A stretch of DNA of 61,566 bases from Escherichia phage P13771, in the sequence record HG792104. One strand, written 5' to 3'. Position numbers: made by a program. Position 1 is the first letter of the stretch. The number at the start of each line of letters is the position of its first letter. Shown in pieces: positions 15,001-18,000 of the stretch.

Positions 15001-18000
15001 ATTTTCATGTAAATACCGTTAGTGGTTATTGGGGGTGAAAAAATATTACTTAACTGATTTTTAAAGTGATTTATTTTTTAAGGGGACAGATAACAGGAGG
15101 GGATATGCAAAGAAAAACCCGGCGCATGGGCCGGGCTATTTATCTGGTCCTGTTCTCATTCAGTAGAGTAGGGGCCAAGAAATCGCACTCCGTTGAAGTG
15201 AATAAGATGAGAAGGTGCATCAGCCACCCATACCTCTGTTTCCCATGCGATTTCACCAAGATATCGCCCCATGATGGAGCGATTTGGAAAAGCGGTCACA
15301 TAGACAAGTCCGGCTGTTGATCCGGCAAACAGCCTGGCAAGCTCAGCATGCCGCTTCCCATCAACCGGTCCATGACTGGTGACAGACTCAACCAGTAGCA
15401 GCCAGTTTTTCGCAGTAAAATGTAGCACCACATCTGGCATTTTACCGTGTGAATCCACATCAACACCTAGCCCGGCCAGCAGTGGAGCGTCGAAGTAGCC
15501 CCACTTTTCGCCAGTGTCGCCAGCATAGACCAGCACGCTACCCGGAGCAAAACGTGGGGCGAAGTCCTCTATTATGGCACGGATAAGTTCGCTGTGCTCG
15601 CCGGGACTGAGGGTTATTTGCTGGCCCGCAGCAATTTCAACAGGGATACGATTCTGTTCGCGCTCCTTAGCATAGCGGGTAACCAGCGTTTCACGCTCGG
15701 CTAAATAGGTTGCAAGGCTATCGTGCCATGCCGGGCTGCCGAAAGTGCGTAGCATGGACAGAGCAGCAGGTTCGATCTGATAAACAGCCTTCGGGCTGTT
15801 CACTGGGCGATCGGGCTTGTCCGGATTGTAGAGGGCTACTCCAGCAGCGCAGAACTGATGCATAGACTGGCGGCGGAATGTCTCACGAGTATTGGGTGCG
15901 TAGACCTTGCCGTAGTGCTCCCGAACCCAATTCATGATTGGTGTAATGCCCACAAGCGGATTTTCCGCGTCGGCCCATGCTTTTCCCGGTGTGAGGTTCA
16001 GGAGTGCCAGCAAACACAAAGCAGAACGCTCATTCTGCTGCGCTCTGGGCAGGCCTAAGGATGCTATAATTTGCTGAGCGGCCTCAATATAATCATTTTG
16101 GTTGTTCATGCAGTCAGAGCTCCTAGCTTAGCGTCAATATGTTCTTGCGTGAGAGTTTCTTGTTGCATAGCCCACTTGCCAAGCTCTATCAGAGTGTCAC
16201 GGCTTGGGTACTTAATCATCTTGAGGTCGGTTGCATTGACCTGTGTATGCCCGTTGAAGCGACGGAAGTACTTATCCACTGCGGTAGTGTTCAGGAACAC
16301 GGCCAAGCCACGGGCCAGCGCCTCGGGTAACCCATGTTTGTTCTCATGAAACACGTTCATGTGATTTTCAAATCCCAACACTGAATACTCACTGAAGGTA
16401 GCAGGATCAACGACGCTTGCTACCACTCGGCGCTTTTCCTCCTTCGACGAGAAACGACGCACCACACAATAAAAACCGTTCGGGTAAAGCCACTTTTCTG
16501 TCTCGTCGTTGCGCATGATTGCGTTGGGTTTCTTCAAACCTTCCACAGGCCAGACAGTGCTACTCATACTCAAATGGCTCGGGTAGATCAGGGGAACAGT
16601 TCCTTCTTCTGGCATGCTGCGCAAATGAGCTTTCAGTCGGAAATCAACTATCGGTCCGGTCGATACCTTCACGCCAATATCAGCCAGCGAACATTGTACG
16701 GCAGATGATAACTCAATGGTGCTTTTCTCGAGCGTGGTCGGCACATGAATAAACCGCTCCGAATCGTCCGGGTACACAATCTGGTCAAATGGGTGTTCGT
16801 AGGTGACCAGGTCAAAAAAGCTATCATCGGTCGAAGTTGTGACTGTAACAGCCTCCTGACGGCCTCCACGCTCCAGGCGGATGATAATATTTTCCTGCAA
16901 CACATCGTCATCCCTGAAAGCTTTGCTACGTGATTCGAACAAATGAATATGGCGGATTGCTGCCCGCTCAAGTATGAAATTACGGAACGGACGGTAATAC
17001 GGTCCGTTGCAGAAACTACGTGGGATTATGGCCACTATCTGCCCGCCAGGTGCAACCTCACCTACAGCCAGTGCAACAAAGGCGGAATACAGATTTACCG
17101 TCTCGATACCGACAGTGCGAAGAGCCTGCCGGTGGGCTGACTGGCTATTGATCTTCTTGTAAGGCGGATTAAGTATTGCATGGGTATAACCTCGATCCTG
17201 TAGACCTTCGGCGGTTGCCAGCTCAATATAATCCCCTTCGATGATGCGGGGCGTCACTCTCCTGTACCCGGTTAAGTGCTTCGCAAGGTGACCACACAGC
17301 TTTTTGTCGATTTCGTAGGCTGTTGCCTCGACAGACTCAAAGCCAAACTCGCCAACCAGCCAACGGTCGAGGAAGGCGCAAGACAGTGCGCCTAAACCAG
17401 CGCCTGCGTCCAGTAGACGGCAAGTTTTCATTGTGCTCGGTGGAAACAAGGAGGCCATAAAACGGGCCACGCCAGAAGGCGTCATGAACTGGCCGAACTC
17501 TGCTTTGTGTTTACGCGCGGTACGGGGAGACAGCTCGCGACGCACGCTGTCTGCGACGTCTAGCTTTTGAAGCATAACTAATCCTCTTTACGTGGCATGA
17601 TGATGCCAACGTGCTTTTGACATCCTCCACATTCTTCAGGCGTGAAGGATGTCAAATCACTCTGTGAGCTCAATCAAAAGTCTCATCATTCCACTGCGAT
17701 TTGATGACCTTTCCGACAAACTGGCAGTTTTCGTTACACTCAATCATGTCGAATCGTGGGTTGAGCGGCTCCAGGTACGCTTTACCGCTCTCACGAATGA
17801 ATCGTTTGAAGGTAAATTCATCGCCGTTCATTCGGGCCACGCAAAAATCGCCATCCTCGATTTCCCGTTCAGGGTCAACGAGTATCAGCATACCTTCAGG
17901 GAAGCTGGGTTTACCACCCTGCGGTGCGGTCATTGAATGCCCCTTGACCTCCAGCCAGAACGACCTGTCACTGGCTTTTGTGGTGGTGGAGATCCATTTA

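Follow-up and report, generated by a model that had tools for sequence, protein, structure and literature searches.

A BsuBI/PstI-family restriction-modification gene pair at the lambda rexAB position of an Stx2a-converting Escherichia phage

The DNA analysed here, referred to as the window, is the 61,566-nucleotide record HG792104 of Escherichia phage P13771, a complete phage converting to Shiga toxin (Stx) 2a, with stx2A at 24488..25444. Next to its repressor gene cI, and on the same strand, lie two genes that together specify a type II restriction-modification (RM) system: a DNA methyltransferase (M) of 489 amino acids (aa) and a restriction endonuclease (R) of 317 aa. An earlier note, made from the sequence alone, had described a methyltransferase with the motifs DAGAGLG and NPPY, a translationally coupled second open reading frame (ORF), their place immediately downstream of cI and a strong terminator at the end of the block, and all four were found again where the note had put them. 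M starts 94 nucleotides (nt) past the end of cI and carries the stretch LLDAGAGLG at residues 54-62 (DAGAGLG at 56-62) and NPPY at residues 136-139. The stop codon of M overlaps the start codon of R by 4 nt, and an AGGAG sequence stands about 10 nt 5´ of the R start; the overlap is a predicted translational coupling. Beginning 18 nt past the R stop, a GC-rich hairpin with an 8-bp stem followed by TTTTTCTTT closes the unit.

The earlier note had assigned the pair to a PstI/BsuBI-type family and proposed a profile search of both proteins, which bears the assignment out. R matches the two Pfam domains that define the family, BsuBI_PstI_RE_N (PF17728; 1.2e-54, residues 7-143) and BsuBI_PstI_RE (PF06616; 4.6e-61, residues 155-307), exceeding the gathering score by a wide margin in each case, and it matches the PADLOC model REase_II end to end (1.6e-168). 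Residues 8-315 align with the solved SdaI endonuclease (PDB 2ixs; E 1.2e-77), and from this full-length homology we infer that R shares the two-domain architecture. Unlike SdaI, R has a threonine (ESVT) where the E-x-V-K segment of SdaI (EAVK) has its lysine. The recognition site of SdaI is the 8-bp CCTGCAGG. M matches the PADLOC type II methyltransferase model MTase_II PDLC03227 over residues 1-489 (5e-248) and the Pfam Eco57I methylase domain (3.3e-09). Judged by these profiles, R is a member of the BsuBI/PstI family and M an N6-adenine methyltransferase of the NPPY type. The earlier note had also envisaged that the 317-aa protein might turn out to lack any nuclease similarity; it belongs to a nuclease family, and an identical protein is reported to be biochemically active (PMC3893438). 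PstI of Providencia stuartii and BsuBI of Bacillus subtilis are like the window pair in both endonuclease domains, in an NPPY-type N6-adenine methyltransferase and, according to the literature, in their specificity for CTGCAG. The window pair is unlike them in being carried by a temperate phage and not by a chromosome, and in its tandem order of M then R with overlapping stop and start codons.

Both proteins are known under another name. They are identical to the corresponding proteins of E. coli O104:H4 C227-11 (NZ_CP011331.1; no difference over the 489 aa of M or the 317 aa of R) and are therefore M.EcoGIII and R.EcoGIII. The cI protein is also 100% identical to that of C227-11, where EcoGIII resides on an Stx2 prophage of the same type and in the same position; over the 4.1-kb region the two differ at about 1% of nucleotides, and all of these differences are silent or fall outside the coding sequences of M, R and cI. 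In phage P13374 the identical proteins are ORF31 (M) and ORF30 (R), accompanied by a cI protein that is likewise 100% identical. Rare codons have been listed for EcoGIII (R AUA15, CCC21 and AGA22; M CUA5 and CCC17; PMC6456624), and the window matches at ATA15, CCC21 and AGA22 of R and at CTA5 of M, with CCC17 of M in agreement at the level of the residue position. We are confident that the block is the EcoGIII type II RM system, a PstI isoschizomer acting at CTGCAG, carried as accessory cargo in the immunity region of an Oslovirus-type Stx2a-converting phage.

The specificity of the enzymes, their expression in lysogens and their defence phenotype are established by published work on identical proteins (in the case of expression, on a methyltransferase ~99-100% identical to M). 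Cloning and characterisation of M.EcoGIII and R.EcoGIII from strain C227-11 go back to Fang et al. (2012; Nat Biotechnol 30:1232), and three papers citing that work (PMC3893438, PMC6602927, PMC7736820) agree on methylation and cleavage of CTGCAG. PMC3893438 states that cloned M.EcoGIII modifies the A of CTGCAG and that R is biochemically active; PMC6602927 describes an RM system, type II and PstI-like, on an Stx2 phage that protects against other lambda-like phages, and the deletion of which alters how 1,951 genes are expressed and has an influence on growth. Cloned EcoGIII lowers conjugal entry of pESBL about 10^4-fold, with methylated sites left uncut (PMC7736820; PMC4288162), and lysogens carrying the nearly identical methyltransferase show methylation at 98.8-100% of their CTGCAG sites (PMC3893438; PMC6602927). 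In the O104:H4 strain of the 2011 outbreak and in other Shiga-toxin-producing E. coli, EcoGIII shapes both methylome and transcriptome, and it limits the entry of phages and plasmids.

The location of the pair can be read against lambda. The earlier note had seen lambda-like operator half-sites on both flanks and had placed the pair between oL and cI, in the position of rexA and rexB, and both statements hold. Downstream of the block, the 17-mer AATCACCGCAAGTTATA lies in the spacer and -10 region of a pL-like promoter; beyond cI, the 17-mer TATCACCTTTGGTTATA forms an imperfect dyad with the half-sites TATCACC and TATAACC and heads a region that aligns with OR3-OR2-OR1/pR of lambda (Table 1). 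These two are the only zero-mismatch matches to the degenerate 17-mer WATCACCNNNRGTTATA in 61.5 kb, a count that is circular because the pattern was derived from them. The repressor has the length of lambda cI (237 aa) and shares 61% identity with it, in agreement with the 61.2% published for the repressor of the phage of O104:H4 strain BAA2326, and the published quantitative PCR primers for that cI match the window exactly (PMC4848623). In lambda, rexB and rexA lie between OL3 and cI; the order of the window, pL/oL, terminator, R, M, cI and oR, is collinear with this, and the terminator has the position upstream of oL that tIMM has in lambda. A 65-aa ORF at 14811..15008 (-) was considered as a further gene and rejected, since its ATG lies inside the -35 hexamer of pL, upstream of the predicted transcription start.

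Table 1. Coordinates of the genes and signals in and around the EcoGIII block of the window.
Feature	Coordinates	Strand	Basis and details
pL-like promoter TTTACA-17-TATATT	14985..15013	-	Promoter scan, 10/12 matches; collinear with lambda OL2-OL1/pL
OL1-like, operator-like 17-mer AATCACCGCAAGTTATA	15003..14987	-	In pL spacer and -10 region
Intrinsic terminator of the cI-M-R unit	15106..15137	-	8-bp stem 15137..15116 (6 GC pairs), then TTTTTCTTT; fold -16.2 kcal/mol
R.EcoGIII, BsuBI/PstI-family type II endonuclease, 317 aa	15156..16109	-	Predicted N-terminal winged helix-turn-helix and C-terminal nuclease domain
ATGA overlap, 4 nt	16106..16109	-	M stop TGA 16108..16106, R start ATG 16109..16107; read from sequence
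M.EcoGIII, N6-adenine DNA methyltransferase, 489 aa	16106..17575	-	Translation; motif I DAGAGLG ahead of motif IV NPPY
cI-M spacer, 94 nt	17576..17669	-	Fold -36.2 kcal/mol, z -3.67
cI repressor, 237 aa	17670..18383	-	Pfam HTH_3 and Peptidase_S24
oR region	18388..18454	+	Pattern search, promoter scan, alignment with lambda OR3-OR2-OR1/pR
OR3-like 17-mer TATCACCTTTGGTTATA	18388..18404	+	Pattern search
OR2-like site	18412..18428	+	Runs into pR -35
pR, TTGACA-17-AATGAT	18426..18454 (-35 18426..18431, -10 18449..18454)	+	Promoter scan; overlies lambda pR in alignment
cro	18479..18682	+	Pfam Cro 4.8e-34; start from relatives' annotation and GGAG before ATG 18479

The place between cI and oL/pL, on the strand of cI and with a terminator before oL, is also that of stk in phage 933W and of hex in phage 434. 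Like EcoGIII, rexAB, stk and hex are expressed in lysogens and act on superinfecting phage (PMC3564112). Rex and Stk do so by abortive infection, whereas EcoGIII cleaves the DNA of the invader directly, and there is no relation in sequence or mechanism. Pfam, NCBIfam, PADLOC and PHROG gave no Rex-family match for M or R, all matches being to methyltransferase or restriction families, and the likeness to rexAB is, on this comparison, one of position without homology.

A heteroimmune relative in E. coli O111:H- 110512 (locus L004) bears on the placement from another side. Its RM genes and the C-terminal domain of its cI are 95% identical to the window, and exactly two segments of the window are replaced, namely 14991..15137, and 18081..18698 with the N-terminal domain of cI, oR and cro. 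Such a pattern would be expected if the replaced segments hold the operators and DNA-binding functions specific to immunity, and it supports the placement independently. Taken with the collinearity to lambda, the swap therefore locates the pair between oL/pL and cI and so within the immunity region.

The contents of this interval vary among relatives. In the O111:H- phage, a Panacea-domain protein and a small partner ORF with a terminator of their own are inserted between the R terminator and pL (L004 2489..3339), which gives this slot a second cargo, of the defence or toxin-antitoxin kind. JNEC-KY176 (L006), with a cI that matches that of the window by DNA similarity, has no RM pair there but HicAB together with a small ORF. 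G1/2 (L003) lacks the equivalent of window positions 15473..17615 and has about 160 bp of unrelated sequence instead, leaving a 3´ remnant of R; H70 and H94 appear to be similar, as judged at the level of coverage, which is reduced, and of annotation, which gives an R fragment. In phage ArgO145 (L010 357..1311), R is annotated as frameshifted with in-frame stops and M is intact, its product being, by this annotation, effectively an orphan methyltransferase. In phi80, the corresponding interval is occupied by genes 40A and 40B. From these comparisons the interval is a swappable cargo slot, which can hold the RM pair, either alone or with the toxin-antitoxin pair of the Panacea type, or else HicAB or what a deletion has left.

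The version found in the window is a common one. Over 3.5 kb around the pair it shows 99.7-100% nucleotide identity to 97 deposited phage genomes, nearly all of them Oslovirus-type Stx-converting phages (P13374, TL-2011c, PA2, PA8, phi191, Ss-VASD), and depositors of the relatives annotate a BsuBI/PstI methylase and endonuclease beside cI. Of 5426 complete E. coli genomes, 139 have the RM pair, in every case on the chromosome, and it accompanies this cI in 134 of the ~140 E. coli genomes that have it. A comparison of O157 Stx2a phages had by 2015 recorded the bsuBI RM system of this phage cluster in the early regulatory region (PMC4587872). The observation of the earlier note is confirmed and its interpretation supported; the system has already been characterised and its location is already in the literature. 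Added here are a base-level map that places the pair in the lambda rexAB interval, with pL/oL, terminator, spacer hairpins and oR in collinear order, and the evidence that this interval is a swappable cargo slot.

How the pair is expressed depends on what happens between cI and M. The spacer is highly structured, with a 16-bp hairpin at 17656..17616 and a second hairpin at 17612..17590, just 5´ of the Shine-Dalgarno sequence of M, neither followed by a U-tract. A consensus scan of the minus strand found no promoter-like or terminator-like site in the spacer and no promoter-like site in the 3´ part of cI, with the limit that weak promoters escape such scans. In lambdoid phages, transcription of accessory genes together with cI from pRM is established for rexAB, 933W stk and 434 hex (PMC3564112), and a transcript of M and R that starts at pRM in lysogens is likely here as well. 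The near-complete methylation of CTGCAG in lysogens (PMC6602927; PMC3893438) is indirect evidence on this point. In the lysogen, pRM activated by cI would transcribe cI, and transcription would continue across the structured spacer of 94 nt, first into M and then into R with its coupled translation, to stop at the intrinsic terminator just before oL/pL, so that read-through would be kept from the lytic left operon. M.EcoGIII would methylate the N6 of adenine in CTGCAG in the DNA of host and prophage, and R.EcoGIII would bind through its N-terminal winged-helix domain and cleave incoming unmethylated DNA with its C-terminal domain of the PD-(D/E)XK type. Lysogens would in this way be shielded from heteroimmune lambdoid phages and from plasmids, and virions released upon induction would also carry the protective methylation. 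As drivers of M and R, pRM and any establishment promoter are presumed. Should coupling to pRM be demonstrated, the phage would show in a clear-cut way how a classical RM system can come under the control of a prophage lysogeny circuit.

Several observations weigh against this account. Expression from pRM is deduced from the layout of the genes, and a literature search for published transcript mapping of the prophage RM genes gave nothing usable. A promoter-like site inside M (16911..16884, -; 9/12 matches) could yield a transcript of R only, and the transcript could undergo attenuation or processing at the strong 16-bp hairpin that separates cI from M. A search near cro and the next ORF for the motif TTGC-N6-TTGC of pRE-type promoters found none in the expected place; that ORF (18713..19006), called CII in the automatic annotation of one relative, has as its sole match a PHROG of unknown function. 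Finally, CTGCAG is only moderately depleted in the phage. The count of recognition sites suggested in the earlier note gave 10 in the window, where shuffles predict 17.05 +/- 3.76 and a Markov model 23; depletion is thus found, and distinctive avoidance is not, since CTGCAG ranks only 15th in depletion among the 64 palindromic hexamers. Self-avoidance by the phage is correspondingly weak, and the idea was discarded. Half of the sites (5/10) cluster within 1 kb at 41988..42980. There is none in 1..21472, which comprises the early-left operon and the immunity region; the post-hoc probability of this is ~0.014 given 10 sites and is not relied on.

One alternative concerns the role of the system, not its wiring. 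Its main selected function might be stabilisation of the prophage through post-segregational killing of cells from which it is lost or deleted, or epigenetic effects of CTGCAG methylation on host expression, or both, and not antiviral defence. The roughly 1,951 genes that respond to deletion of the system and the influence on growth (PMC6602927, citing Fang et al., 2012) fit such a role. The decayed loci do so too: in G1/2, the sole deletion read at the sequence level, M and the 5´ part of R were lost together and a 3´ remnant of R stays, H70 and H94 are similar by coverage and annotation, and in ArgO145 R is frameshifted with M intact. Among the few loci read, none has lost M with R intact, which is the order of decay expected of an addictive RM pair, yet with only a handful of decayed loci inspected the absence of this class is weak evidence. 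That the system restricts lambda-like phage and the transfer of plasmids is on record (PMC6602927; PMC7736820), and defence does not exclude stabilisation or an epigenetic role. We consider it rather improbable that these roles, and not defence, are the main ones.

A second alternative accepts defence and questions the connection to the repressor: the RM pair could be driven by one or more promoters of its own, independent of the repressor circuit, and the position beside cI could be a permissive insertion site only. The promoter-like site inside M would be a candidate for such a promoter, and pRM itself is too weak for a consensus scan to show. Cargo of the slot can elsewhere have signals of its own, as with HicAB in JNEC-KY176, which is on the opposite strand with a terminator-like hairpin after cI, and the Panacea pair of the O111:H- phage lies after the R terminator and so needs its own promoter. 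Against this stand the lack of a promoter-like site on the minus strand of the spacer and 3´ cI in the scan described above, the continuity from cI to M on one strand over 94 nt with no U-tract terminator between them, and the single strong terminator that closes the unit ahead of pL. The layout also matches cI-rexA-rexB of lambda, and rex, stk and hex are documented cases of co-transcription (PMC3564112). We judge independent expression to be unlikely. It is very improbable that the pair is a decayed one in this phage, with an active methyltransferase and an inactive nuclease: the frameshifted R of ArgO145 and the threonine of R in place of the SdaI lysine could be cited in its favour, but R has its full length and shows 100% identity to its C227-11 counterpart, the identical protein is reported to be active (PMC3893438), and the cloned system cuts plasmid entry ~10^4-fold (PMC7736820).

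If M and R are transcribed from pRM, the wiring could have a further consequence. One speculative possibility, which we regard as doubtful, is that connection to the repressor transcript makes RM dosage a read-out of lysogeny, with the conserved 16-bp hairpin setting the ratio of cI to RM by processing or attenuation, and that the pair doubles as an addiction module against loss or deletion of the Stx prophage. If true, this could help to explain the near-constant pairing of this cI with the RM genes. G1/2, from which the RM genes are deleted, retains the 16-bp stem with another loop (L003 4540..4580), so the hairpin may be part of the cI module or the sign of a recombination joint; it may alternatively be an RNA processing site. 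Part of its 3´ arm recurs beyond the HicAB cargo in JNEC-KY176 (L006 3700..3720). A match of the spacer to the MIR394 RNA family was below threshold (23 bits, gathering score 60) and is taken as chance.

Several neighbouring elements were recorded in the course of the analysis. The pL leader (14718..14905, -) has a perfect rrn-type boxA (TGCTCTTTAACAA) at its start and, over 188 nt, shares 95% identity with the leader that lies between oL and gene N in phi80, with further matches to HK225 and a Klebsiella phage. A boxB-like hairpin, GCCCTTACACAGGGC, is found at ~14943..14957. A tblastn search of the window for a phi80-type N downstream of pL was negative (best E 1.6). On the other side of cro, 45 nt within 19125..19195 (-) are 80% identical to the pL transcript start. 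This stretch lies on the leftward strand between the ORFs 18713..19006 and 19214..19591, is preceded by GATAAT and a TATCAC half-site and could be an unrecognised leftward promoter, though no -35 was found.

The window also has an ORF at 2925..3551 (-) with a DPPW motif, of the MT-A70 methyltransferase type. For a gene of this type in the related phage phiPA8, action on 16S rRNA jointly with a partner protein and a rise in spontaneous induction were reported (PMC10810198); one primer of that study matches the window at 2337. The phiPA8 "rRNA methyltransferase" was considered as a counterpart of M and rejected, since it is another gene, belonging to the MT-A70 family and having a DPPW motif.

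Downstream of pL, Rfam models above their gathering scores identify a C4 antisense RNA (14455..14542, -; 78.9 bits) and the Hfq-binding RNA isrK (14567..14642, -; 61.7 bits), beside sites that resemble a promoter (14678..14649) and a terminator (14587..14572). This block (14455..14678, -) lies just upstream of, or overlaps the start of, an ORF with Rha/Ash domains at 13753..14538, and it looks like an antirepressor control module of the P1/P7 immI type. The RNA sRNA-Xcc1 (Rfam; 13536..13619, -; 79.6 bits, gathering score 53) is located directly 5´ of an antirepressor-like ORF with an ORF6N domain (12823..13497). A direct repeat (12872..13105 and 13802..14035, 93.6% identical) encodes a shared C-terminal domain of ~77 aa (phrog_17980) that ends two different antirepressor-like ORFs.

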